The position numbers and the translations under genes are program-made. Below, in pieces: positions 12,638 to 62,822 of a DNA stretch of 64,000 bases; within the stretch, counting starts at the first letter, position 1, and every line of letters begins with the position of its first letter. The notes beneath the pieces are model-generated. The model worked only from the letters and a program-made list of their open reading frames with translations. It was not told the origin of the DNA and made no database searches. This DNA is from Callorhinchus milii (Eukaryota). The stretch lies in NCBI RefSeq assembly GCF_018977255.1, contig NW_024705102.1:1-64000 (forward strand), in the 5' to 3' direction.

Positions 12638-13539
12638 TCATGATTGAATCAGTTTCACCATTGGATTGAAAACATACGCCAACATTTTCCTCAACTCTTG
12701 TCTGAATTTTGTCTGTGTCACAGCATAAATACACGTGTTGGTGGCGCTGCTTAAAAGCTGAAACATGATTGCGGAGTGATACAGGACATAGACTGGGTCA
12801 TTATAAACTGTGTAAGAAGATTCAACTACTTGCCCATATATCACATATACAACATATGTCATCCAAAGTAAGACGAAACTGCCCGATATAGTGAACAGCA
12901 AAATAATGCACTTTTTCCTGTTCTCTATCTCTGAGTTATTGTTATTCACATTCTGCTTGCGGCTGAGAAGACGTCTGCGGATTCTGTTGGCCACAATAAT
13001 GTGTCTGATGGTTAGAACATTGAAGAGCAAAATAAGCAAATATGGAATAAATGGGATTAGAATGACATCTATCCAATTAAATGCTGTCCAAAGAGATGTA
13101 GTGTAGAAGGTTGCTTTTAGTTTACAGAACCATTGAACATTATTTATTATGACAAAAGCTTCATACGCAAAGTACCAGGGTATGTCGCTCAGACAGCTCA
13201 TTACCCACACAGTCCCTATAACTAAGTTTGCCGTTCTCTCGGTGCAATAATGTCGTTTCAGTTTCTCACAGGAAATAGTCACGAAGCGTTCAAAAGTGAA
13301 AGCGACTGTTAACCAGACAGAGCTGTCAGCAGCAGCAGAAATCAGAAAGGTCCCGAAAGCACATACAGGCGTCAAATCCAGAAATCCCACAGGAAAATAC
13401 AGAAAATTAATCCGAGTTAACACCACATCACTGATAACCACCAGCAGATCCGCCATTGCCATGGCAATCAGGTAACGAGTGACACAGGAGGAGAGGCCAC
13501 ATTTTCCCCGGGACAGGATCACAATCGCTAGTAAGTTAC
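12638..13539 (-). CDS. GPCR-1 exon 2: GPR139/GPR142-like class A GPCR (TM1-TM7), intact; spliced protein 334 aa
   Basis: Acceptor ttctgcag|; reads GNLLAIVILSRGKCGLS..YLIAMAMADLLV..AFTFERFVTISC..WFC..SFVLLWMTY..SSATNTCIYAVTQTKFRQEL; 103+902 nt = 335 codons including stop. Confidence 0.93.
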
Positions 13540-14746: not shown

Positions 14747-14849
14747 CAAGCCCACCAACGATTGCAAGAATCGGGTAGAAAATGTACATAATCTGGAAAA
14801 TGATTTCTTTCTGATACACCTTTTCTGAGAAGCTGTGATATTTGTTCAT
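14747..14849 (-). CDS. GPCR-1 exon 1 (N-terminus and start of TM1)
   Basis: ATG MNKYHSFSEKVYQKEIIFQIMYIFYPILAIVGGL G|gtaagt; phase-1 donor joins exon 2 in frame. Confidence 0.9.
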
Positions 14850-14898
14850 TATAACGGAACTGATGTGGACAGGCACTAATGCATTGACTGAAGCGTCA

Positions 14899-14919
14899 TT
14901 TATACAATGGGGAAAGCCC
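14899..14919 (-). promoter_or_regulatory. GPCR-1 core promoter: kB-like GGGCTTTCCCC followed by TATAAA
   Basis: Minus strand cactgggctttccccattgtataaat, ~50 nt upstream of the ATG. Confidence 0.6.
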
Positions 14920-15049
14920 AGTGAGCCGAAAAGACCTGTTGAGCTTCACATCACTCACAGTCAATGGAACAAACACATTACGATATTCGCCAAAAATAGA
15001 TATTCCCATGTGAACACGTAATAACTCTCTTGGAAAATCTAATTAGATT

Positions 15050-22900: not shown

Positions 22901-23906
22901 GTCCCAATAGGGAGTCGGATCCACAGGTTTGCTGTTCGCTCACTGAGTTAGTGTTTCAGTAGATTGATTCTGAATTCACCCCACTTCATTCGCAGGACGT
23001 GTCGTCTATTTACATCATTCTGTACTATTTGTAATAGGGTGGCATGATTTAAATTGTTTAGCTACTTTTGAACCGTAAAGTCAATCATATCGCCACTCAA
23101 TATTCTCGTTTCCAGTGGGAAGATTCCAAATCACTGTCAAATCAAAGATGCAAATAGATAGAGCTGTTTTTTTCCAACAAACCAGATGTTATACTAATCG
23201 AAAAAGTGATTGTACATGTAACATTATTTATAAGATAAGCAACTTGAACAGATCAGGAAAAATGGGATCTATCAATTAACCGCAGACTTATATAGCAATG
23301 TAATAGAAACATATTTCCTATAAGATTGAGGATAATAGACCACATCTATGGGAATAGCTCAACCTCAGTGTTTAGTCTGGACAAGCATCGTATCCAAATA
23401 TTTGAAACTGGACTGTGAAACTGAAATGATTGGGTTGTTCACGCTGGAAACTGGAATTGTTAATAGACTGTGGAAATCGATAGCGTGTAATAATCGTTGC
23501 TTGGCATCAAACAGCACCGATGTCTTGTTCATCCGGTTCTGGCCTCCTCCTTGTCCCCCGCTCCACACCCTATGGCTGTGCCTTGAGACACTATGCCCCG
23601 AGGCTCTGGAACTGCCTTCCTCACTCCCTTCTTTTCGATCCCTCCTTTAACTTCTTCAGGTCTCTGGTGAAGACCTTTCATTTCGAGCGCGCCTTTGGTC
23701 ACTCTCACGCACCAACGCCTCCCTTCCCACCCCGTAAAATGCATAGGGTCATTGCCAACTTTTTTCTTTTTTCTCACACAGCCCCTATTACGAACTCACA
23801 AAAACATGTACTATTCCCTCTTGATATTCTTTAGCAGCTGTCTTTAATTATTTGTTGATTCGACTACAATCATTATCAGCGATAACACCACCTGTCACGT
23901 TCACTG

Positions 23907-23929
23907 GGGAAATTCCTCTGCTATATAAA
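23907..23929 (+). promoter_or_regulatory. GPCR-2 core promoter: canonical NF-kB site GGGAAATTCC plus TATATAAA
   Basis: cactGGGGAAATTCCtctgcTATATAAAt, ~85-105 nt upstream of ATG 24012. Confidence 0.7.
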
Positions 23930-24011
23930 TACTTCTTTGAAAGTGTCATCCAACAATTGAAGACAAAGCGTTTGTGATCAACACAAAAACTCTGTATCGT
24001 TCTCAACAAAA

Positions 24012-24093
24012 ATGAACGTAGTTATATTGGCTGATATACTTAATCAGATAGAAACGATATGTTACCCAATCATTGCCGGTATTGGCATTCCAG
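24012..24093 (+). CDS. GPCR-2 exon 1
   Basis: MNVVILADILNQIETICYPIIAGIGIP G|gtaagt; 82 nt, phase 1. Confidence 0.9.
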
Positions 24094-25590
24094 GTAAGTT
24101 TTTGTGTTTAATCAATGAATTCCTGAACTTTGGTCATTCACCCGCATTTTACGATTCTTGTCCTCATGATTCCACAATCACTTCTCTTCAGTGCATAAGA
24201 CTCATTAGGGAGCATCACAATTTTTAGTCATCTGTTTTATGTGATTGATTAGCTAGTAATTTTCTGACATCAGTTTAAAAGAAATGATCGCATTAACGAG
24301 CATTAGCCGCTAAATGGGTATAATTAATATGATCGCTAATCTGATGGTTAAGTAATATAGTGAGTGAATTAATTGCAGTGAATAGTGAGGAAGATGGCAA
24401 GGGACTCAGGGAAGATACATCATTAACACATTGATAGTCAAAGTCTTTTAGGAAATTCTTTCATTTCCCTGCCTACTTTTATTGTTTCTTACCTCTTTTT
24501 GCATTGATATAATTAACCACTCAATCCATGGCATCTAATCTCCCCTCAGCACAGGTAGGGAGGTGACAGGGCGTGAACGCACTTGTGGACTGCTGAGAGG
24601 ATCTTGAAATCAATCCTTTCTTTGATAGAAAACCAGTGAAGCCTGACGAGGGCAGGTGTAATGGCAGTATGGAATTCAGTGTGTGTCAGTATACAGGCTG
24701 CAGATTCCTCGTTCGAATCGAAGCCGAATTTACCTTCGGAAAAAAAGTTGTTTAAAATATTTGAAGAAATTACTGAATCGACAATTATTTGTGATTGCAA
24801 TCCAAGCGATATTTGAACCAATCTTGGATATTGAGCAATCTAAACAAACGGTGACTAAATTTAAAATAATATACCAACTTCATTTCTCCATCACGGGCAG
24901 TGATCAATCGCTTCCTATTACAATCCATGCATTTGATACTGCGCCTTATCATGTTATTGAGACACCAAAAATTGCATCACAGTATTATTTGTGAAGTTTG
25001 CCATGGGGAATTATTGTTATTCTTGTGCTTTGCCTGCTGACATCATCAATTGTCTCACCACTCCCAATTGCCAAATTAATCGAAATTTCTGCCTTATACA
25101 ACTCAATAGCCTGTGGAGATATGCTCACCTCAGTTTTAAAATGTTACCCCTGAAACTCACCTTGAAACTTCACCTTAAACACCTACGGCTAAGCGTTCTT
25201 CTTCCAGTGATAATGCTATTTTGTAATAAATATTTCTGGCAACCCGATATGTTAAGCTGTCGTATGCTGGTTACACAAGCCTCAGTTTAACGGGCAGTAA
25301 GCAGGAACTCTTTAGTTATTTGATGGCGGATTGCATTTCCGATCGGAATAATCCCTAAAAACGAATTCATTCAATCCAGGACTGTATTTCGGTCACTCCT
25401 TTGCCGCGTTTTGCCTACAACACATAAAGTCAATCAATTCACAGTATATTCTGTAAAGCAATTTAAGACGTCTCCACAACACGAAAAGGTGTTGCATGAA
25501 TTGGAAAGATTATTCGAGGTATGATTATCGAAACGATGGCATTATTTTCATTAAATGAATCTGATGTTGTTTATGATTTATTTCTTGTAG

Positions 25591-26486
25591 TTAACTTGGT
25601 GACGATTGTGATCCTGTCCCGAGGAAAGTGCGGTCTCTCCACATGTATCACTCGCTACCTGGTGGCCATGGCAGTGGCAGACCTGCTGGTGGTGATCACT
25701 GATGTGATGTGGAAGCGCATTCCAGAAACCTATATGATGCAATTTATTTTCCTGAACATGACTCCTATCTGCTGCATCCGTGAGGTGCTTTTCCATGCAA
25801 CCACCACCTGTTCTGTTTGGCTCACAATCGCTTTCACCTTTGATCGATTTGTAGCAATTTGTCATCAGAAACTGAAAACCAAATACTGCACCGAGAAAAC
25901 AGCGACTGTGGTCATTGTGTCGATCTCTGTGTTCAGCTGTGTGATCAACATACCCTGGTACCTCGAACTTGAACCGCTATTTATAATTAACAACACGCCT
26001 TGGTTTTGTGTTGTGAAAGGAAGTTTTTATTTTCATGGTATGGACCGCTTTTCGTTGTTTCACTGCATTTTACGCCATTTATCCCATTTGTTCTCATTTT
26101 GCTGCTCAATGTTCTGACCATCAGATATATCTTAGTGACCAATGCTGCACGGAGAAGGCTCCGAGGCCACAGCAACGGGGAAAATCAGAAAGATCCAGAG
26201 ATGCAGAATCGTAGGAGATCCATCATTTTGCTGTTTACAGTAACGGGGAGTTTTATATGCTTATGGGTGACGTATGTGATAAGTTATTTTATACCAAGTT
26301 CAATTTACGTATTTTAATTTAACTGGTGATGCAGGTAAATTCCTAAAAGTCGGCAATATGCTTCGACTTTTCAGCTGCTCTACAAACACATGTATTTATG
26401 CTTTGACACAATCCAAATTCAGAAAACAGCTGAAGAATATGGTGAATTACCCATTGTATCAAATATTGATTCTGATCAGATCATAA
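25591..26486 (+). CDS. GPCR-2 exon 2: GPR139-like GPCR, frameshifted as assembled (pseudogene or sequencing errors)
   Basis: Acceptor ttcttgtag|; VNLVTIVILSRGKCGLS..AFTFDRFVAIC..; four 1-nt losses at ~26030-26075 and a 2-nt loss at ~26290 relative to GPCR-3; ends ..CSTNTCIYALTQSKFRKQLKNMVNYPLYQILILIRS TAA. Confidence 0.85.
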
Positions 26487-29759: not shown

Positions 29760-31935
29760 GCCACTGCCATCACCCATGGACTTGACATTTCGACCTCAGC
29801 ATAGTGAACAATATCATCTCCGACCATTTCTTCATCTCCTTCTCCTCTCACATCACTCTCTCCTTGACCAATCCCTCAATCATCCTCCACCGACCTTGGA
29901 GAAGGCTAAACCTGAAAGCCCCCAAAAAGCTCTATCATCAGCAAATTTCCTATCCTTCTGGCCTTCCGTGCAGCTGCTCCATTATGGCCTCTCCTCCACA
30001 TTCAAATCCCTCGTCCCCTTAAAATACAGGACCATCTCCAAGCCCACCCAGTCCTCCCCCGCGCCGGTACAACAACCATCTTCGCCGCCAATAAACCAAA
30101 CCCGTCTGCTCGAGCGCAGATGACGGACTACTGGCCTGGCAGCTCACCACCAACTGTGACTCGAGCATCTCCACAGCTTCCGACGTTTTTTGACGCACGC
30201 AAAAACGGCCTTCTACTCCAATATCATCTTGAAGGATAAACACTTCCCAAAATCCTTTTTTTCCACTACTCGCTTCCTCCTTCGTTCCCCCCTCAGGCCT
30301 CCTCAATCTTCATATCCAAAGCCAAGTGCGAGGAGGACATGGACTTAGTTTCATCTAAAATACTTAACACCGGCCAGGCAGCCTCATGCCCCTGCACCTT
30401 GTCTCCCACCACCACTCGCTCTATTTCCCCCTTACCCTCCTCATCATCTGCTCCTATCTCAACCCACTTGCTGTTCTACTTCCTCGCCAGCTCTACGTCC
30501 TCCTTCTCACCCACCATGACATCCATGAATCCCAGAACCTGCTGCATCGACCCCCTGCCCACCAACTTACTGGTCACACAGCTGCCCTTCATCTGCCCAT
30601 TACTGGTTGACAATATCAACCAGTCCCTCTCCTCCGGATTAGTCGCTCCCTCCCTCAAAACTGCTGTCATCACCACCCTCCTGAAAAAACGCTCCCTAGA
30701 TCCCTCAAACCCCAGACACTGCCTCCCCATTTCTAAACTGGTCTTCCTCCCAGAAGTTCAAGACCGCGCTGTTGCAAACCAAATCTGCTCTAACCTCTCC
30801 TCCTACTCCCTCTTCGAACCCCTCCAGTCCGGTTTCCGACCACAGTACAGAGACTGCGCTTGTGAAAGTCACAAACGACATCCTCTCTATCTGTGACCAT
30901 GGCTCGCACTGCCTCCTTGACCTCCGGGACCTCACCGCCCCGTTCGGCACAGGCGATCACGCCAGCCACCTCCTCGAACTTTCCTCCATCATCCAACTCA
31001 ATGGGACCGCACTCGTCTGGTTCGAGTCTTACCTCACAAACCGCCAGCACTACTTCTGCACAAACGGCTTCTCCTCCAGCTGTCACACTTCTTCTTTCTG
31101 ATCTACATGCAGATTTTCTTTAGCTGAAGGTTGACAAGAAGGAAGCCATACTCTTTGATTCTCTTCAACGTCTAAAATCTCACGGCGCTCACATCCTCCA
31201 CCCGCCCGACATGCCGCTTGTACTCTGCGAAACGGTACGCAACCTACGCGTCATGGTAGACCTCCAAATATCCTTCCTCCACCAAATCCGGTTCCTCACC
31301 AGCACCGCTTTCTTCCACCTGCGACGTATCGCCCGTCTCCGCCAATGCAACTGCCCAAAAGCCCCTGAAACCCTAGTCACTGCCTTTGGCACCTCTCGGC
31401 TGGACTACTCTGACGCCCTCCTCGGCGTTCTCCCCTCTTCTTCATCCATAATATCCAAATCATTCAAAACTCTGCAGACCGCATTCTTCCCCGAACCATA
31501 TTCCGCTCCACGATCACCCCAGTACTGGCCGGACTGCACTGGCTGCCTATGCCTGAGAGGATCGACGTCAAGATCCTCACCTTTGAATTCAAATGCCTCC
31601 ACTCATCTGCACCCCCCGACATCTGTTAACTCCTCTCTCCTCAAGACAGTACCCCTTCCCTTTGTTCATCCGGTTCTGGACTCCTCCTCGTCCCTCGGGT
31701 CCTCCGCCTCACCCGCTGCGGCCGCTCGTTCAGCCAATACGCCCCGCGCCTCCGGAAATACCTTCCTCACTCCCTTCGCCTCGCTCCTTCTCTTCCTATT
31801 TTCAGGTCTCGGCTGAAGAACATTCTTTTCGACCGTGCCGTTTGGTCACCTTTCTCCCCCACCCACTGGCTCGGCCCCCGGGACCATTCTGAGACGCGCT
31901 GAAAAAATGCAAGTTGTTGTTGTTGCTGTTGTTGT
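29760..31935 (+). mobile_element. 5'-truncated degraded L2 LINE
   Basis: ISDHFFISF; TCCIDPLPT..LKTAVIT.LLKKRSLD..PISKL.FL; [19 protein letters not shown]; VRNLRV..FFHLRRIARLR..SRLDYS; (ttg)n end. Confidence 0.92.
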
Positions 31936-39863: not shown

Positions 39864-40625
39864 GTAAGTTGTTAATAAAAGTAATAATTATTCATCTGTA
39901 ACGTTCTGATTTCCCAACTTTTGCCACCACAAGTTGCAGATCATCCTGAAATCTGCAGCATGTATCCCTTCCAACACCATTCTCCACCAACCTACCCAGG
40001 CTCCACTGGCCCACAATCCTACAGAGGTAAAAGTTCAAAATCTTTATTATCGCCTTCAACGACCTCCACGGCCTTGCTGTTCCCTAACTCTGTGACCCAA
40101 CTCCATATCCACCTGACTGTACACTCCGCTAAGCTGTCTGAGCCCTGCTCCATGCTCCACGCCCTGACTGACGTACCATCGAAGGGCAGATATACAGCCT
40201 CTCCAACTCCACCCTCTGGAACGAAATCCCATAATCCCTTCGCCTTGCTCTCAACCTTCCTTCTTCGAAGGCACATTTCAAGCCCATAGTCTTCAACGAC
40301 GCTTTCAGCCACCCTCCAACTCTCCGAAGCCTTCACATTCTATTACGCCAATACCCTCTTTTCCATCCATCACCAGGCCGTGTCCCAAAATGTGCCTGCT
40401 CAGGGTCTTGGGACGTCCTCATAGATGATTGGAGACATTGGGGTGTCAGTGTATGATTAGTGTGCGAGAGAGAGATGGCTATAACCTTGGGGGTTTCAAT
40501 TGATGGAATGAAGTGTGAGAGGTTGATATTGAGTTGGCAGTGGAGAGCATGGAGGTTGAACGTTACATTAGAGGAACGTGCCATGACCTACAATAAGACC
40601 ACTTGCAATTTTTTTGACATCACAG

Positions 40626-40667
40626 CCTTTCTCAAAACTCCAAAGGGGATGATCGCAGGCGCAAGAG
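40626..40667 (+). pseudogene. Candidate IgSF mini-exon 2
   Basis: cacag| AFLKTPKGMIAGAR |gtaagc; 42 nt; flanks homologous to mini-exon 1. Confidence 0.5.
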
Positions 40668-41145
40668 GTAAGCTATCAGCAGTAACAATAGCCAATAATC
40701 TGAAAATATCTGATTTCCCCACTTTTACCTCCAACAGCTACAAATCATCCAGATCTGTGCAGCTCGTGTGCTCTCCCACAGCAGCTCCATCACACTCACC
40801 CGGCTCCACTGGCTCCCCATCCTGCAAGATGACATTTCAAAATCCTTGTCCTCTGCTTCATGGTCCTCCACGACTTTGCTCCTCCCTCTCTCTGTACCCA
40901 GCTGTCCACTCCCTCCGCTCAGCAAACTATGCCCTTCTCCATATTCCCCGTCCGGCCTGACCACCAACGGCGGGCAGACCTTCAAGCTCTCCATAACCAG
41001 CGTCTGTAACTCCATCCCATATTCACTTTGCCTTGCTCCCACCTTTGCATATTTGAAGGCACATTTAAAGATACTCATCTTCGACCGCGCCTTCAGCCCT
41101 CCTCCAGTCCTCCCTGACTTACACACGCCCTTACTTTTTTTTCAG

Positions 41146-41190
41146 ATATTACAACCATAGCTAAAAAGGCGATGAGCACGGACACAGAAG
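41146..41190 (+). pseudogene. Candidate IgSF mini-exon 3
   Basis: ctttttttttcag| DITTIAKKAMSTDTE |gtaagt; 45 nt, phase 1-1. Confidence 0.65.
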
Positions 41191-51260: not shown

Positions 51261-52590
51261 TTTGCTTGTTTCACAACTTTCACGTCGGGTGGACGTCACC
51301 AGGCGCTGATATATCAAACTCGAGATTTGCTGCTCTCTCGGAAGTTGCACTTCCACACAGACTGCTTGAATTACCACTCTTCTGAAGAAAAAGATAATGA
51401 AAGATGAAGCAGGAGTGTTTTTTTCTTCAAATTAGGTAATGATTTATTAATTGGCTTGTTAAGTCAGTGAGTAAATAAAGACTGACGGTACGGAATATAT
51501 ATATTTCAACTACAAGTACAAGCGTTTTGAAGAGAATAATTCCAGAGTTTATTTGACACATAATTTGCCACTACACGAGAATCCACTGTGAGTTACTGAA
51601 AATTAACAACCGAAGAGATCACTTGAGTTTCCTCTTTCTTAAAATTTACCGAAGACCGATACATGGTTGATATCTGATATTTTAGAAGCAACTTCTAGCC
51701 TCTCCTAACTCAATGTGCCAACATAAACGACCGCGCTTTACTCCTTCCCACTGCTCCACATCTCACTCTCTCTCTCTCTCTACGTTTCTACATGTACATG
51801 TGGCTTTGGCCGTCAATTCAACTTCGATGATCAATTCTTATTCATATAATCCTTTGATATGTTGATGCTCGCTTCGTTAGGCTCGTGATTATTTTGGTAT
51901 TTAACACAATTTTCTGGATAAAAAGCAATAATTAATATTTGTTTCTTGACCTACTTGAGTGAACTGAGTTGAAAAGGAATCTGGATTTTCTCTTACGGAA
52001 CACAATGGAAGCATTTAAGGTCATACAGCCTCATGTGTTTGTTAATTTGCATTTCTTTCACAGAACATAATGTGAAACACTTTCAGATGGCTCAACGATG
52101 CGGTAATCCTCTACATCAATAGTAAGGAATACTAGTATTCACATAACCATGGAATTATAGAATCGAACAGCACAAAAAGAGGCCATGCGGCCATTGAGTC
52201 TGTTAGGCTTCTATGAAAAGAATAATGTTATTTCATTTCCAATCTCCAGCCCTTTCCCCATAACCCAGCAAATACAACCTCCTAAAATACCCATCCTCCG
52301 GGTTTTCCAGAAAATTTTCTTCAGACATCGTCGAGTAAGCTTACGGAACAGGTTTCTAGGGAGAAAACGAAAGCATAGAATGTTTACTTCATGAAAAAAA
52401 TGGATAGATTTCTGCTGGAAAATAATATCTTATGATACGCTACACATACGGAAAACGCACACACTAAATCACGCGCGCACCGACATACACACAATATACA
52501 GCATATAGTTTGGGACACAACATGTCAGGCTTCACGCAAGAAAATGGATGGCGAACTCGATGGATATTGGTCTTTGTAGGCAGCAAATTC

Positions 52591-53491
52591 TTATTTTCTG
52601 AACAGAATGCGTATTTGATAAAACGGGTATATCACCATATTCATCAGCTGTTTTCTGAATTTGGTTTGTGTCAAAGCATAAACACATGTGTTTGTAGAGC
52701 AGCTGAAGAGTCGAAGCATATTTCCAAACTGTAGTGCAATCCATGAGTTACCAGACGATTTAAAAGTCACAAATTCAATTTCGTTCTGAATATAAGCTAT
52801 CACATATGTCACCCATAAGCATATAAAACTCCCCGTTACGGTAAACAGCAAATTAATCGACCTTCTCCGATTCTGCATCTCTGGATCTTTCTGGTTTTCC
52901 CCATTGCTGTGGCCTCGGAGCCTTTTCCGTGCAGCATTGGTCACTAAGATATATCTGATGGTCAGAATATTGAGCAGTAAAATGAGAATAAATGGTATAA
53001 ATGGAGTTAAAATGCAGTGAAACAACGAAAAAGCGGTCCATAACCATGAAAAATAAAAACTTCCTTTCACAACACAAAACCAAGGCGTGTTGTTAATTAT
53101 AAATAGCGGTTCAAGTTCGAGGTACCAGGGTATGTTGATCACACAGCTGAACACACAGGTCGACACAATGACCACAGTCGCTGTTTTTTCGGTGCAGTAT
53201 TTGGTTTTCAGTTTCGGATGACAAATTGCTACAAATCGATCAAAGGTGAAAGCGATTGTGAGCCAAACAGAACAGGTAGTGGTTGCATGGAACAGCACAT
53301 CACGGATGCTACAGATAGGAGTCAGGTTCAGGAAAATAAAATGCCACGAATAGATCTCTGCAAAGCCTTCCATATCACATCAGTGATCACCACCAGCAGG
53401 TCTGCCACTGCCATGGCCACCAGGTATCGAGTGACACATGTGGAGAGACCGCACTTTCCTCGGGACAGGATCACAATCGTCACCAAGTTAA
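52591..53491 (-). CDS. GPCR-3 exon 2: GPR139-like GPCR, one 1-nt frameshift at ~53366 as assembled
   Basis: Acceptor ccttgtag|; ORF 53328-53579 supplies VNLVTIVILSRGKCGLS..DVIWK and ORF 52591-53373 supplies the rest (AFTFDRFVAIC..CSTNTCVYALTQTKFRKQL); restoring 1 nt gives 327 aa. Confidence 0.88.
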
Positions 53492-55344
53492 CTACAAGGA
53501 ATAAATCATGAATAAACTCAGATTCAATTACGAAATTAAGGCCCCAGTTTCTATAATCAATGCTTCGAATGGAGTTCAAAGTTACAAATAATTATCCTTC
53601 CAAACATGCAGTTACTCTTGCTTTACAGAGACGTTTTCAAGTGCTTCGCAGAACATGCTGTAAATTTAATTGCTTTTGTGTGCTGCGGTAAAAAGCGTCA
53701 CAGTACTGTCGGAAATGTCGTGGATGAATGAACTTATTTACGGGATTATTCCACTCGAAATTCAGTACGACAATCAAAAAACTACAGAGTTTCTACTTAA
53801 TCTTTTGCGAACAGAGGTGAGTATCTAGTATACACCGGTTTCTAATACCGGTTTGCGAGAAATAATTTACAAAATTGCATTAATACTGGACGACTTTGAT
53901 TTTCATTAAGTGATTTTCAGGTGCAACATTTAAAAACTTAGGTAACACCTCTCCAGCAACTCGTGAGCATTACAAAACAGACAGTTCTCTTAATTTGGCG
54001 TTCGAGACATAATTGAAGATGGTAGCTGGCAAAGCATGAAGCGCAAAATATAAAAATATAAATATGAAATAAGACAATTTCTTTGATATCTGTTGTTTTT
54101 ACTGCTTTGAGCAATTTGCATGCCAAGTTTTCCAACAATTCCAGAAGGTTCACTTCAAAAATAATACTGTGATGCAGTTTTCCATGTCTCATTAATGTGG
54201 CAATGCGCAGTACCAGAAGCGTAAATTATAATAAGCAGCGATTCATCACTGATAGTGATGGGGAAATCCAGTTGGTATGTTATTTAAAATTTAGTCACCG
54301 CTTGTTCAGATTGTTAAATATCCAAGATAGTTTCGAAAGTAGTTTGGATTGCCGAATAAAACTAGTTGATCGATTCAATAATTCGCTGAAATACTTCCAA
54401 CTTAACTTTTCAAATGAAAAATTGAGTTTCGATTCCAACTAGTAATCTGCAGCCTGTATATTGCCCAACGCTCAATTCCATACTCCCATTCCACCTGTCC
54501 TTGTGAGGCTACACTGGTTGTCTATCAAAAAATGGATCGATTTCACGATCCTCTCACTTGTCTTACAAGTACATTCACCAACGGCGCCTCCCTACCTGAG
54601 GTGAGCAGACAGGGAATGCAATCGATTGGGTGGTGAACTAAATCAAAGGACAAAGTGGGAATAAGGAAAAAAAAAGGCAGGGTAAGGAAATAATGACATT
54701 AATGACTTTGACTGTGAAGGTGTCAGTGTTGTGAAAGAGAAAACTGACTGATTGACCGGAGGTATTTTTTCAACGAATGTTTAGTGAGCAACGACGGCAG
54801 ATGGGAGGCCAATCGATTCCGCCTATTAGCGACGAAGGTAGGTTAGAAGTTAAAGAGATGGAAGGGGCAAGGGAGGCTGCCAGTACATTCCATGTTTCAC
54901 GACACCAAGGCTTGATTTCACATTTTGCTGGACTGCACAATAACTCAATTCACTGTAGACCACCTGGACCTCTTCGGCTGGTGTCTGTTCCAGAATTGGC
55001 TCTCCGAGTCCATGCTCCCATGCTAACCCGGCTCGCCTGGCTCCCCGTTCTCAAGCGGATCGAGTTTAACATCCCCGGACTAAACTTCAAATCCCACCAT
55101 GGGGAATCTTTTCAAACCTTTCTATTCCAAATGCACCGTCCTCACAGCGGGCTCCAATCTGCAGCAGCTCCTATACTCCAATCTGCCTAACAATTCGTGT
55201 TCGAGATTTAAGATTATTTTCCTCCTCTCTGGAACTTAGTGCCAGAGTCTCCAAGATTGACCAGCTGCTGCCGTTTATTTACGACACAGAGTTGTTGGGA
55301 CCCTGAATAAACTCTCCTCCATATAAGAAGTTATATTGACATAC

Positions 55345-55426
55345 CTGGAACGCCAATAGCTGCAACAATAGCGTAGTATATCGGTTCTATCTGAATAATT
55401 AAATCATTCAATTCAACCACATACAT
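55345..55426 (-). CDS. GPCR-3 exon 1
   Basis: MYVVELNDLIIQIEPIYYAIVAAIGVP G|gtatgt; 82 nt, phase 1, same length as GPCR-2 exon 1. Confidence 0.9.
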
Positions 55427-55516
55427 TTTTGTTCAGTACGATACGGATTGTTTGCCTTCACCACAATTGCACAAACGCTCAGTCTTCAATTGTTGAATGT
55501 CGGTGTCAAAGAAGCA

Positions 55517-55539
55517 TTAATATAGCAGAGGAATTTCCC
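55517..55539 (-). promoter_or_regulatory. GPCR-3 core promoter: NF-kB site GGGAAATTCC plus TATA-like TATATTAA
   Basis: Minus strand actGGGGAAATTCCtctgcTATATTAAt. Confidence 0.7.
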
Positions 55540-55851
55540 CAGTTGATTAATTTGGTGGTGTGATCGCTGAAAAGGATCATTGTCGAATGAACAAATAATT
55601 GAAGACAGCTGCTGAGGAATATCAAGAGGGAATTGTACATGTTTTTACAAGTTGTAACATAGGCTGTATGAAAAATAAGATGTTGTCATTGACACGATGC
55701 ACTAAACGCTCCATAGATATGTTTTTAAGTAGATTTTAATGATGATTCAGCCATAAGAAAAACACTGCCAAAATCTCATATGAATTTCGTCTGCTTTTCT
55801 TATTATGTTAGAACTTCTTCAAATGGCTACTATTTACAAGCGGTTGATATT

Positions 55852-56235
55852 TTCTGGAGTCTTGTAGACGTGTAGTTAGAGCACTAAACGCACAAGCGAA
55901 TTGACCTGGGTTAGCCTCCTGGGTAGGGCAAAACATTGGGTAAATGTATTATCTTGAAATGCCTCTATTCTGCAAGCAGTAAGTGGGATTCTGGATATAT
56001 ACTTCGCGTATTCCTTTTCTTGGAGAAAACAAACACGTCAACATCAGTAAATAATATAACAATAAATTGTACTGTGAACGCAGTACTGTTTGTGGGACAC
56101 TGATGTGGTCAATTGGCTTCCAGTTTCGGTGAAAAAGTGTACAGTCGATTCATTTTGCAGTACGTCCTGTAAAGCAAATTGAGATGACCTCCTGATGTGA
56201 AAGACGGCATAACAACAAGAAATTATTATCCTTTG
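55852..56235 (+). mobile_element. Degenerate SINE, absent from arm A
   Basis: Head tggagtcttgtagacgtgtagttagagcac; body ctgtttgtgggacactgatg; tail cctcctgatgtgaaag. Confidence 0.75.
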
Positions 56236-57944
56236 TTGTTGTCTCGAAGACCTGATCAGGTGCTATAACACCCGCTGGGATTATTATCATTGTCTTTCGA
56301 TTTCGGAATAGTCTTAATAACAGATCCAGTTTCCAGCGTGAACTGGGCCAATCACTTTTCAGTTTCACATTATTTTGGTTCGGATCCTTTGTTCAGGGAT
56401 CTGCTCTTGTCGACGCTATTAAGCAATTCGCACACATCAGTTCTATGACCTTCAACACTGCAGGAAATATATTAGTTTTATCTAATCATAAAATAATAAT
56501 GAACAATGATACATGATTCTGCATTTAATTAATATATATGTATTTTTGCTGATCCGGTCTAGTTGCTTATTTTATAAATAATGATAAATGTAGAGTATAT
56601 TTTACGTTATCATAATGTCTGTTTTGTTGCAGTCACCAGTTCTGTCTATTTGCACCTCTGAGTCTCACGTAATTGGGATCGATCACGCTGGAAAAGAGAA
56701 TATTCCGAGGCGATATGATTGATTTTACGATTCATAAGTCGCTAAACCACGTAAATTATGCCATACTATTTCACACAGTCAAGAATAGTAAAATCAACCG
56801 ACAAGTCGGCAAACAAAACCAAACTGGTGATTAAAAAATGACCATTCACGTGGATGTGAAATTTAAAAATATTGAGGTGAAACAACGGCTCCATGGATTG
56901 GGTTTCAAAGTGTCAGTCCCATTAACAGTAGATCCTGGGTTTATCCTTGCTAAATACCCGAACATCGTCAATGTTGGTTTTTGCTGCTGTGATATCACAG
57001 TATCATGTAACACTGCAATTTAATTTGTCACGAAAATAACTGAAGGTCTAACATATCTGAGAATATTTTCCATCACGTTGCGGTGGTGATCCTTTTTGTT
57101 CAAGAATAACGCCCCCAATGCATTCTGCAAAAGTGACAGCCGACAGTGGGCATTTGTCTATTATTATATCTGACAAGCAACTGTCCGGCAGTGAACATCT
57201 GGTGAGCAAAGATTGAGATCAATCTTTGAGAAACATATCATCAGGTGCAGGCACAAACAGGAGAAGAATCTAAGTTTTGACTGTTCTATCATCGATAGAA
57301 ATATTATGCTGACAAATTCGTATTATTTATCAGCATTCAAGTTGGGAATGAGAATTGGCTCAGTATTAGATCTATAACTGCAGAAATCATGGGCTCATGA
57401 CCCTCTTCGCTGTCGCTCTGATATCTAACACTGGAGGCTGCACTTTCAGCCGCTAGGCCCCAAAATTAATTCTTCCTCCATCACGCCGCCATATCCCTTC
57501 CATCATTGTATTCATGTCGCCACTGAGGAGCTTCCACTTCCACCATGCCAAGAGTCATCTTCGCCCTACCCCAGGATCGGCATCATCAAGCACTCTGGGG
57601 CGCTACCGTGCAAAAGGAGTGCCATATAAATGCAAGTTGTTGTTGTTATTGTCACTAACCTAACTGTGATCATGCTCAGCATTGTCCTCACCATGGGTAT
57701 GAACTCTCAACCGCTGTACGTCTGTAAGCCAATCGTCTATAACTTGTTCAAATATAAACAATATAATCATGAACTCAGAATCTACGAAAACAGTTTCTTC
57801 AGCAAATGTTGCCTGACCCTGATTGTTCCACCTAATTTTCTTGAGAGCAAGTCCTGAATCTGCAATTTTTAATGACGTGCAGGAAGAAACGAGATTTGAT
57901 ATATTTTTGCTGCATATGTTGTAGGTGAAAGGCTTTTATGGAAT

Positions 57945-59188
57945 CTCATAGAATCAAAGAATTATGCTCCACTGAAGGACGCCATTCGGCCCACTGTGTC
58001 TGTGTCAGCTCTTTGAAAAGTTATAACGAAACAATTCTCACAACCAAACTCTCTCCATAGCACTGCAAACTTGTTCTCTCCAATAAGTTATCGACACACA
58101 CCACACCACCCAACGACCCCCACATATCCACACCCACCCAGTAGAATTATTCTCAATTTGAGCACCCTATTCAATCTCCTCATTGTACTGAAACATTATT
58201 TTAAGCCTCCTCTTATCTACCTCTGCTCCAAGAGAATATTCATAATTTCTCAAGCCTCTCCTGATAACTCAATCGCTCATTCCTGGATTCATTCTGGAGA
58301 ATCTCCTTTGCTTCCTATCCAATGCCTTGACAATCTTCCTATCGGTGGTGCCCAGAACTGAACACATTACTCTAGCTGAGGTCTGAGACCAGTATTTTAT
58401 AAATATTCATCTTGCTTATTGAATGTTGTCCCTATTTATAAAGTATAGTATCCCGTATGCTTTTTACCAGCGTTATCAGCCTGTCCTGCTACTTTAAAAG
58501 ATTTCTTATATGAAACCCAGATATCTCTGTCCTTCACCCCTTTCTGATTCCACGTTCCAGTTTATATGTCGCTTTTCATTCTTGGTCCAAAATGCATCGT
58601 TTCGCATTTCTCCATATTAAACTTCATCTGCCATGTGTCTGCCATTTTACCATTCTGTATGTGTCGTCTTATCGTCTACTGATAAGCTCCTCATAGTCTG
58701 CTAGAACTCCGAGCTCAATATCATCGTTGTGCTTGTAAATTGTACTCCCTATATCCAAGTCCAAATCATTTATATAAATCAAAAACAATAGTGGTCCCAA
58801 TGCTGACGCTTGGGGGAACCAATTGCCCACTTCCCTCCACTCAGAAAAACAATCATCACGTCGACAATCTTCTGTTGGTCTCCCAAACAGATCTGTATCT
58901 AAACTGTCACCGTCCGTCTAATACCACAGACCTCTATTTTGTCTACCAATCTCTTATGTGGCACGTTGTGATGCGCCTTTTGAGAATCCATCTAAACTTC
59001 ATCAACTGCATAAAGTTCATCCACAACGGCCGTTAATTCATCAAAATATTCTATCAGGTTTGGTAGATATGGTTTGCATTCCACAAATTCGTTTCGGCTA
59101 TCCTTTACTCACCCATATTTTTCCAAGTGAAATTGCATTTTGTCCCGGATTATAGTTTCTAGAAATGTCTCATGACTGACAACAGACC
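57945..59188 (-). mobile_element. Degraded CR1 (duplicate of the 18900-20592 insertion)
   Basis: Reverse complement of 19160-20590, e.g. MARCDAPFENPSKL vs MARCEAPFENPSKL in antisense frames. Confidence 0.88.
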
Positions 59189-59189
59189 T

Positions 59190-62100
59190 TGAGTCGGGGA
59201 GCGGCGGCAGGACAGCGCGGGGAGGAGCCTGGGCCTACTGACCCAGGTACTTAAACGCGACGCCGGAGCGAGTTTAGCCCCGGGGGGGTGGGGGGGGGGG
59301 GGGGGGGGTAGGGGCGTTGTGGGGGCGGAGCGGGGGATCTGCGACGTCATAGATTAGTTTTTCAGGTGAGTGCGCGCGCAAAAAAAAAAAAAAAAATCCC
59401 ACTGCGCCCCCCCCAGGGCTCGCTCCCGGTCCCCGCGTGCGCACTATGGCTGCCGCTTTGACCCAAGTCCCCTCAACCCCTCCCTCCCTCCCCCCTCCTT
59501 TCTCCCCCCAAACCCTCCCCCCTCTGCATCTCTCCCGCTCTCTCCTCCTCTCTCTCCGTCCCTCTCGTCTTCTATCCCCACTTGACCCTCCCACAACCTC
59601 CCTCTGCTCCAGCCTGGGAATCCTCCGTCGGGCTCACCGCGGCACTCGGCGTTGGCTGTCCAGCAGCAGCCACACCGACTGCCCCATTCCCCACCACACT
59701 CGACACCCACCCCGGACACAGACCCGGGGAGCCAACCTCTCCTCCCTCATCCCCATCCCCCCACCCCTGCCTCACAACCTGGACCCCCTCCCCTCCCACA
59801 CACCCTTCTGTCAACCGCTCCCTCCACATCGGACTGCAAAATGTCCGCTCCCTCTGCAACAAGGCCCTGGTCATCAACGATCTCATCCTTGATGAGAACG
59901 TTGATATCATGGCCTAACGGAAACCTGGCTCACCCCAGGCGACACCTTCCCCCTCACGGAGGCCACGCCACCCGGCTACACCTCCCACCACTTCCCCCGC
60001 CCCAACCGCCGTGGCGGTGGTGTTGCCCTTATCTCAAGGACACCACTTATCCCTATCCCTACTTATCCCTATCCCTATCCCCCTACTCCACTGCCTCTTT
60101 CCCCTCCTTTGAGCACCTCACCCTCTCCCACCCCTCATTCCTCTCCCTTAAAATCCTCCTCCTCTACCGGCCCCCTAAAACCTCTCCCACCTTCATCTCT
60201 GACATTTCAACACTCCTCACATCTCTTTGCCTCTCCTCTGATCGCCTCATCATCCTGGGCGACTTTAACCTACAATTCACACCCTCCTTCTCCATCTCCA
60301 CAGACTTCTCTTCCCTGCTCTCTTCACTCAACCTCTCCTTACACATAAACTCCCCCACTCACAGTCACGGCCACCCACTCGATTTGGTGATCACCCGGGG
60401 CCTCAGTGTCTCGGATGTCACTATTACCGACAAGGCCATCTCTGACCACTGCTTCATCTCCTTCTCCTCCTCCACCCCCCTCCCCACCTCCACCAGACCC
60501 ACCACCATCTTCTACCGCCCTTCGAAGAAGTTACCCGCACAATTCCTAACCGAAGCCTTGGAGTCCTCTGAACTCCTCTCCCTCTGGCCTTCAACCCTCA
60601 CTGACCCCTCTTCTCCTCTCTCCCTCCTCCACAATACGCTCTACTGCACACTCGATAATCTTGCCCCCATCACTTCCCGCAGTGTCTCCTACTCCCGCTC
60701 CCCCTGGTACACCACCCACCTCCGCTTACTGAAAAGCCACGTGCGGGCTGCTGAACGCACCTGTGTCAAATCTGGCCTAACGGTCCACCGACAAATCTGG
60801 CTGGACCTCCTCAAAATTTACCGCTCCACTCTAGCCTCGGCCAAGTCGTCCTTCTGCTCCAGGATAATCCTGGAGGCGAAGAACAACCCCAGGCTACTGT
60901 TTTCCACCACAACCCGACTCCTCCGTCCCCCCCGCCACCCCGCGCAGGTCATCTCGTCCAACCTTCACTGCGAGGAGATGCTGGCTTTCCTTGAATCCAA
61001 CATCAAGGGAATCCGCTCCGCGGTCACTTCCCCTCCAACTTCCACCCACCCCCCACCCCTTCCCTCCCACACTCCGACTCCTACCCATCCTCCCCTACAC
61101 ACCTTCGTACCCGTTTCCCTACCCTCTGTCACTGAACTCATCCTATCCCTAAAACCAACCACCTGCCCCCTTGACCTCATCCCCACTCCACTACTTGTCT
61201 CCCAGCTCCAATTTCTTGCCCCACATATCACTGACATCATCAAGCTGTCCCTCTCCTCTGGCTCTGTCCCCATTCCATTAAAAACTGCCATCATCACGCC
61301 CACCCAGAAAAAACCCTCCCTTGATGCGTCGCAGCTATCAAGCTACCGGCCCATCTCCAAACTCCCCTTTCTCTCCAAGGTCTTGGAAAGAGTTGTGGCC
61401 TCCCAACTGCTCTCTTTCCTTTCCGCCCATTCTCTTTTCGAACCCCTTCCGTCAGGTTTCCGTGCTGCCCATAGCACAGAAACTGCCCTGGTCAAGGTCA
61501 CCAGTGATATCCTGACCATCTGTGACCAGGGCTCCCTCTGGCTCCTCGTCCTCCTCGACCTATCGGCAGCATTCGATACAGTCGACCACGCTATCCTACT
61601 CCACCGCTTGTCCTCCCACCTCAACCTTCAAGGCACTGTCCTTGAATGGTTTAGCTCTTACCTTTCCCACCGTCTTCACTTCGTCTCAACGAATGGCTTC
61701 TCCTCCACCCCCCGTACTGTCTCATGTGGTGTCCCTCAGGGCTCTGTCCACGGTCCCCTCCTCTTCACCCTCTATATGCTCCCCCTTGGTGACATCATCC
61801 GCAAACATGGGGTTAACTTCCACATGTATGCGGATGACACCCAACTCTACCTTTCCTCCTCTACTCTCAACTCCACGACCACCGATGTCCTGACAGCTGT
61901 CTGTCCGACATCGAGTCCTGGACGAGAGAAAACTTTCTTCAGCTCAACGTGCGAAAAACCGAGGCCCTCCTGATTGGCTCACGTCAGCGCCTCCGCACCT
62001 CAGGCGCTGACACCATCAGCATCCAAGGCTGCACTCTCCACCTCTCAAAGCCAGTCAGGAACCTCGGCGTTTTGTTCGACCCTGAGCTGTCCTTTCTCCC

Positions 62101-62822
62101 GCACATCCGCACCACAACTGGCACCGCCTTCCATCACCTCCGGAATATCGCCAGACTACGGCATTACCTCACCCCTCACGCTGCTGAAACCCTGGTTCAC
62201 GCCTTTGTCACCTCAAGGCTGGACTATGGGAACTCTCTACTCGCGGCCTTCCCGCCACCTCCCTCCACAAGCTGCAGGTCATCCAGAACTCTGCAGTTCG
62301 TGTACTGTCCCGCACCAGGCTTCGGGACCACATCACTCCATCCCTCGCTCGCCTCCACTGGCTCCCCATCCCCCAGAGGATTGATGTCAAGATCCTCATC
62401 CTCAACTACAAGGCCATTCACGGCCTTGCTCCCTCCTACCTCTCCGACCTACTATCCCCCTACCTACCTGCCCGTATCCTCCGTTCCTCTGGCTCCGGTC
62501 TGCTCCACGTCCCCCGCCCCAACCGCCCCACCATCGGTGGTCGGGCCTTCAGCCTCTCAGCCCCCAGGCTCTGGAACTCCATACCCCATTGCCTTCGCCT
62601 TGCTTCTTCCCTTTCCTCCTTAAAGGCCGGTCTCAAAACCTTTCTCTTTGACCGTGCTTTCAGCTCCCCTCTCGACTCTCTTCCCCCTCCTCGCTCCCTC
62701 TCTTCCCTCTCCTCACCCTGACCATTTCCCCCCTGCTCGGGTCATGACCCAACTGTGCAGCGCCTTGGGACGTCCTCCTGACGTGAAAGGCGATTTATAA
62801 ATGGAATCTTGTTGTTGTTGTA
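59190..62822 (+). mobile_element. Near full-length young L2 (LINE2) retrotransposon with APE endonuclease and RT
   Basis: [46 protein letters not shown] (APE); [59 protein letters not shown] (RT); SRLDYGNS, LHWLP; 3' tail with (ttg)n; a few 1-nt frameshifts. Confidence 0.96.

Follow-up and report, generated by a model that had tools for sequence, protein, structure and literature searches.

A 64-kb stretch of the Callorhinchus milii genome, referred to here as the window, contains three members of a single receptor family, GPCR-1, GPCR-2 and GPCR-3, each of which is recognized by Pfam 7tm_1 and has a phase-1 intron separating a short initial coding exon from a long second one (Table 1). Relative to an intact paralogue, exon 2 of GPCR-2 has six single-base deletions, near positions 26032, 26039, 26049, 26072, 26288 and 26290, and exon 2 of GPCR-3 has one, near 53366, by comparison with an intact copy that is 98.6% identical (L058). 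The first four GPCR-2 deletions are also present on a second contig, and the GPCR-2 frameshifts may reflect either a pseudogene or an error of the assembly. Long portions of the window are 95-99.7% identical to other contigs (1302-26135 to G000:C205, which holds two identical copies of GPCR-1 exon 2, and 52535-59008 to C784), and these stretches are either recent segmental duplications or haplotigs. The window also carries a LINE-type element on the forward strand (59586-62721), with a 795-aa frame encoding endonuclease and reverse-transcriptase domains (Pfam RVT_1, E 8e-28) that carries on in shifted frames. Fragments of similar, LINE-like appearance lie near 30240-31816 and 40457-41160, and two frames at 30-31 kb have no Pfam match.

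Table 1. Coding exons and promoter features of the three receptor genes in the window, with the GPR139/GPR142-type gene of the same genome.
Feature	Position	Strand	Remarks
GPCR-1 exon 1, coding part	14747..14849	-	
GPCR-1 exon 2	12638..13539	-	intact; 334 aa protein after splicing; Pfam 7tm_1
GPCR-1 TATA box	14898..14904	-	55 nt before ATG
GPCR-1 proximal element	14909..14926	-	without exact kB site; weak O/E match (3 mismatches)
GPCR-1 distal module	14950..14975	-	71 nt before TATA; strong copy, 28 bits
GPCR-2 distal forkhead-like + TAAT module	23849..23874	+	73 nt before TATA; decayed, 11 bits
GPCR-2 proximal element	23900..23916	+	O/E-like 10-mer at 23901-23910 (one mismatch) overlaps kB word
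GPCR-2 exact kB 10-mer	23907..23916	+	3' part of the family's proximal element; very probably one clade's derived state
GPCR-2 TATA box	23922..23929	+	90 nt before ATG
GPCR-2 exon 1, coding part	24012..24093	+	phase-1 GT donor at 24094
GPCR-2 exon 2	25591..26486	+	frameshifted in this assembly
GPCR-3 exon 1, coding part	55345..55426	-	
GPCR-3 exon 2	52591..53491	-	frameshifted in this assembly
GPCR-3 TATA-like box (TATATTAA)	55517..55524	-	98 nt before ATG
GPCR-3 proximal element	55530..55553	-	TTAAT, decayed O/E left half, exact kB 10-mer at 55539-55530
GPCR-3 distal module	55572..55597	-	73 nt before TATA; decayed, 10 bits
GPR139/GPR142-type gene (L171)	G000:C20:3925408		E 7e-88 to human GPR139

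The three genes belong to a family of two-exon class A receptors present in hundreds of copies in this genome. Two genome searches, each returning between 1056 and 1170 first-look candidates, resolved at least 230 distinct loci, some of which may be haplotigs, and a third search yielded more, in agreement with the expanded orphan GPCR family proposed in the earlier, sequence-only reading of this DNA. Among 1189 database relatives the best 120 are all from cartilaginous fishes wherever a species is given, and most carry the label 'probable GPR139'. Over the columns used for the tree, two proteins labelled Callorhinchus are identical to two loci of this genome. That reading had likewise called the receptors GPR139-like, an identity that does not survive comparison: GPCR-1 matches human GPR139 with an E value of 1e-7, and GPR52 scores better, as against 7e-88 for the gene on C20, to which GPCR-1 is only about 25% identical. 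The family shares with GPR139/GPR142 the class A 7TM fold, the two-exon layout and the database name, but differs in comprising hundreds of copies where GPR139/GPR142 is a conserved single gene (PMC7318219). We therefore rejected orthology to GPR139/GPR142 on the combined evidence of E values, identity and copy number, and regard 'GPR139-like' as an automatic database label that is misleading for this family. A Pfam Srw search recovered mostly unrelated peptide receptors together with the GPR139/142 gene, and searches of the open-access literature found no study of this receptor family. Clades were defined from a quick IQ-TREE phylogeny with weak deep branches that served solely for this purpose. 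Throughout clades K1, K2 and C (for example L083, L079 and L078) the exon 1 donor is GC, not GT.

The feature that drew attention to the locus is the word GGGAAATTCC, which we take to be identical to the IFN-beta PRDII kB element. As had been noted from the sequence alone, it stands 5 nt before the TATA box in both GPCR-2 and GPCR-3, separated from it by a TCTGC spacer that is followed by TATATAAA in GPCR-2 and by the weaker box of GPCR-3. These two words are the sole matches to the kB consensus, GGGRNWYYCC, in the window, where a dinucleotide model predicts 0.14. The further claim that all three promoters carry the site holds for GPCR-2 and GPCR-3 and fails for GPCR-1, whose promoter reads cactGGGCTTTCCCC-attg-TATAAA at 14923-14899 and whose word GGGCTTTCCCC, 4 nt before TATAAA, departs from the consensus by one mismatch, at G1; its nearest paralogues show GGAGTTTCTC, GGTGTTTCTC or AGAATTTCTC in the same place. 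Nor do GPCR-2 and GPCR-3 represent independent conservation. Both are members of one young clade and their promoters are identical at 187 of 231 nt (81%), so the two exact kB sites amount to a single inherited event; the chance that a given 10-mer is common to both by descent alone is p ~0.12.

Promoters were compared across the family as paralogues drawn from one genome. In 100 genome stretches, exon 1 was located for 91 of 102 genes, the remaining 11 being dropped for want of a confident exon 1. The first promoter set comprised 90 sequences in 20 clades, with GPCR-3 added and with L107 and L126 left out on account of a truncated or N-bearing promoter. The addition of 17 promoters gave an extended set of 107 in 28 groups, with groups weighted equally; seven of 24 later exon 1 matches were left out, six because they came from clades already sampled and one (L160) that was without both modules under the automatic anchor. 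TATA anchors were assigned automatically and 13 were corrected by hand, and the kB and O/E tests used consensus strings as opposed to matrices.

De novo expectation maximization on the 90 promoters, weighted by clade, identified two motifs that score far above seven control sets. The proximal motif, TAAT..TCYCA.TGGAG..TTYCC, is positioned at approximately -29 from TATA with a log-likelihood of 125, compared with 39-53 in controls, while the distal block, TGTTTGTTCA..CTGTRA.TAAT, combines a forkhead-like word with TAAT at approximately -72 and reaches 144, compared with 45-55. The matrices were trained on these same promoters, which inflates the in-sample scores; the later-added groups (L147-L152 and L156-L158) score with the motif matrices too. 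Above 10 bits the distal module is present in 62 of 107 promoters and 17.9 of 28 groups, at a median of -72, and in none of the intron controls, and its pattern has 90 matches genome-wide, by eye mostly on contigs carrying family genes, against three for the reversed control. The distal block lies 71-73 nt before TATA in GPCR-1, GPCR-2 and GPCR-3 alike, an alignment at module level that runs contrary to the earlier view that the rest of the GPCR-1 promoter could not be aligned to the other two. Identity at four-fold sites between clades averages 0.44 (45 pairs), which makes retention of the module at fixed distances hard to attribute to descent alone and implies selection. On the strength of these sequence comparisons the promoter element is almost certainly under purifying selection, with the TATA box presumably serving as the core promoter. 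In clades C, J and K the proximal element is nearly lost. Its consensus pattern gave 84 matches genome-wide against 24 for the control, mostly scattered on large contigs, and was discarded as support since, of four matches examined, L198 and L199 proved to be family promoters and L200 and L201 did not.

The proximal element can be read in two ways, as a kB-like site or as an O/E (EBF) site, and the two readings overlap on its purine core with one consensus mismatch each, at a key position. In 9.7 of 28 groups a word no more than 40 nt from TATA matches the O/E consensus published in Table 1 of PMC3247239 with at most one mismatch, compared with 1.3 when the 5' side is shuffled. The kB-like word beside TATA, at the same tolerance, occurs in 11.8 of 28 groups, compared with 3.4 when the core is held fixed and the 3' side shuffled. 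None of 150 shuffles was as high in either test, and both halves of the element are thus conserved. Exact O/E matches (2 of 107 promoters) are rarer than exact kB matches (15 of 107). At the column where kB requires G, 63% of groups have A and 19% have G; as the sequences stand, this A fits the end of the O/E site and breaks the kB site. Rel dimers need G2 and C9 of the kB site, and it is on these positions that variation falls, with 4.9 of 9.6 group weights of the one-mismatch kB matches broken at G2 and 2.3 at C9, such that the GGG and CC contact bases are not conserved across family promoters.

The flanks of the proximal element bear on the same choice. TAAT words are enriched in two windows before TATA (11.3 and 8.3 of 20 clades, against a background of 3.6 with a maximum of 7.1), and TAAT followed by a pyrimidine/purine run is most frequent with a spacer of 3 nt (6.8 of 28 groups, against an intron mean of 0.6). 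This arrangement resembles the Lhx2/Ebf composite of mouse Greek Islands (Monahan et al. 2017, PMC5608512), where the Sfaktiria probe of supplementary file 7 has 3 nt between TAAT and the Ebf site and the Ebf half tolerates pyrimidine/purine runs. It differs in that the chimaera copies lie in proximal promoters and not in enhancers, TAAT is found in some groups only, and the spacing peak is broad, with 5.0, 6.8 and 5.7 of 28 groups at 2, 3 and 4 nt. The exact TAAT/Ebf composite occurs in 2.4 of 28 groups, L145, L146, L108 and L112 being among the matches, and the loose composite is enriched in a narrow window only, since in 250-nt windows it is not (7.3 of 20 clades against 5.5-6.5). Given the breadth of the spacer peak and the scarcity of exact O/E matches, the O/E reading is a resemblance and not an assignment. 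A second likeness is to mouse odorant-receptor promoters (Young et al. 2011, PMC3247239), where a large, clustered set of GPCR genes also shows O/E-like and TAAT words enriched just before TATA. In the chimaera, O/E is degenerate, the distance to TATA is fixed, the receptors are not odorant receptors, and the promoters carry an extra forkhead-like block, the word 'forkhead' occurring 0 times in the text of PMC3247239. Among other consensus words, IRF and ETS were found in none of 20 clades, and RUNX, C/EBP and octamer words were near background family-wide.

How far does the perfect kB site extend? Within 40 nt of TATA, the exact 10-mer is held by promoters from three of 28 groups, namely all 13 sampled members of the GPCR-2/3 clade together with L044 and L117. 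Genome-wide, exact GGGAAATTCC-N5-TATA is not enriched (25 matches against 30 for the reversed control), 14 of the 25 being copies of the GPCR-2/3 clade with an identical spacer, and the loose kB-to-TATA pattern is equally frequent in genome and control (314 each). Enrichment of kB next to TATA across paralogues, a check proposed in the sequence-only reading, is seen for the one-mismatch word and not for the exact site. The closest promoters outside the clade, those of the broken genes L145 and L146, read TAATTCTC.GGAG.AATTCC and contain the exact composite without a kB site; L156 and L198, from other groups, have the GGAG state as well, from which GGAG appears ancestral and GGGG derived. Judged from this pattern, the exact kB site is very probably derived and limited to the GPCR-2/3 clade. 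The likeness to the canonical PRDII element is thus confined to the exact 10-mer of GPCR-2 and GPCR-3, and the family as a whole differs from it in its rarity of exact sites, its ancestral A at the required G and its lack of IRF words in the 20 clades. A canonical NF-kB-driven repertoire across the whole family, the central proposal of the earlier reading, is not supported, because the exact site is clade-limited and derived and A occupies the required G in most groups.

We tentatively propose, at slightly less than even confidence, that an old element about 29 nt before TATA, of which the word makes up the 3' part, is probably bound by an EBF (O/E) dimer together with a homeodomain protein and would drive expression in chemosensory neurons, and that the perfect NF-kB match is recent and belongs to one clade. 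If the module is the cell-type promoter of the family, the distal block would be occupied by one forkhead-type and one homeodomain protein, EBF with its homeodomain partner would bind the proximal element next to TBP, the module would drive the family genes in chemosensory neurons, and recent substitutions in one clade would have produced the perfect kB match. The factors named here are putative, motif resemblance being what points to them, and EBF with a homeodomain protein as readers of the element is a claim we consider evenly balanced. Olfactory-neuron expression is possible though rather doubtful, and is suggested by the promoter grammar and by the birth-and-death evolution of this large and clustered set of GPCR genes. 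Counting against the EBF reading is the kB-like 3' half, conserved beyond chance, which EBF leaves unaccounted for. The rarity of exact O/E matches, the broad spacer peak, the decayed O/E left half of the GPCR-2/3 clade, the broken state of the L145 and L146 genes and the V2R promoters described below weigh against it as well.

That half gives weight to a different proposal, a leukocyte receptor repertoire, in which immune cells would express the family, the proximal element would serve EBF1 or be a Rel site of low affinity, and sites for forkhead and C/EBP proteins would contribute. Both EBF and forkhead factors have roles in B cells, which together with the unexplained half makes this a real rival, albeit an unlikely one. 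It can draw on the one-mismatch kB word, which exceeds partial shuffles, on the exact sites in three groups and on C/EBP-like words noticed when certain clades were inspected visually, but it must contend with matches that mostly break G2 or C9, a variable gap from the purine core to YYCC, the missing IRF and ETS words, RUNX and C/EBP frequencies near background, and an enrichment of TAAT that a lymphoid reading does not need. We judge it improbable that the kB and O/E resemblances are incidental and that the element instead serves another factor, such as a zinc-finger protein, or forms a feature of the core promoter. The key-position mismatch of each consensus to the family consensus would fit this idea, as would an element of approximately 18-24 nt, longer than a kB or O/E site, and its near absence from clades C, J and K; the pyrimidine-purine palindrome with adjacent TAAT, in contrast, fits a known grammar.

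A regulator switch restricted to the GPCR-2/3 clade, in which an EBF-like site became a perfect kB site through two substitutions that rendered this clade, and not the rest, NF-kB inducible, is compatible with the proposed EBF and homeodomain promoter but would itself be surprising. The outside sisters have TCTC..GGAG, in contrast to GGGGAAATTCC with a decayed left half in the clade (three O/E mismatches in most members). In addition, a 24-nt block spanning kB word, spacer and TATA shows no variation among the clade sequences (13 of 13; P 0.00035 by column shuffling, with 62% of columns invariant), and the distal module is weakened to 10-16 bits from about 30 elsewhere. However, the invariant block includes the spacer and TATA, so the kB word itself need not be what is constrained; gene conversion may have occurred, haplotigs may account for some copies (their flanks are 98-99.7% identical), and a single origin is a single event. 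An invariant block accompanied by decay of the left half and the distal block is accordingly the picture expected of an NF-kB switch and also of gene conversion or core-promoter constraint.

Cartilaginous fishes have been described as poor in olfactory receptors (PMC10116579; PMC8455134). If this family of hundreds of orphan receptors, with its deeply conserved promoter grammar, is olfactory, it would change the olfactory-receptor count of these fishes; if it is not, it would constitute an undescribed immune receptor repertoire. An overlooked olfactory family in cartilaginous fishes, taken alone, is conceivable but doubtful. The fuller scenario seems very unlikely; it would combine an overlooked chemoreceptor family under an ancient forkhead, homeodomain and EBF promoter with an EBF site overlapping a near-kB site, such that one or two substitutions could flip a clade from sensory-neuron to NF-kB control, the GPCR-2/3 clade being such a flip.

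Promoters of V2R genes from the same genome (15 promoters from 20 stretches) contain the distal module in none of 15 cases and the proximal module in one, with O/E at one mismatch in four of 15 against one of 15 in each control. In the V2R clusters on G000:C11 (L174-L193), several TATA boxes lie 40-60 nt before the ATG with TAAT beside O/E-like words, and the loose composite is found in nine of 15 promoters against 6, 3 and 0 in controls.

Several individual loci merit description. At L157 (G000:C11:11034368-11034539) the full promoter module occurs twice in tandem, 105 nt apart, ahead of a first exon that is broken, and the following 8 kb contain no exon 2. L156 (G000:C7:28233307-28241275) is an intact family gene whose promoter is nearest to the family consensus. 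Contigs from four sequencing runs match GPCR-2 at 80% likeness; in three runs guessed to be RNA, from unlabelled tissues, one contig fits L156 exon 2 at six of six diagnostic letters and fits an unspliced intron end better than a spliced one (17 differences versus 22), so that it carries no information on the GPCR-2 promoter. For GPCR-3 no RNA run was listed, an outcome to which we attach no weight. In the clade J promoters (L053, L054, L056 and L091), the O/E left half is replaced, some 30 nt ahead of TATA, by the word TGATGCAA, which resembles a C/EBP-ATF amino-acid response element. Clade K promoters display C/EBP-like words adjoining CTCAGGGAGA at approximately -85.
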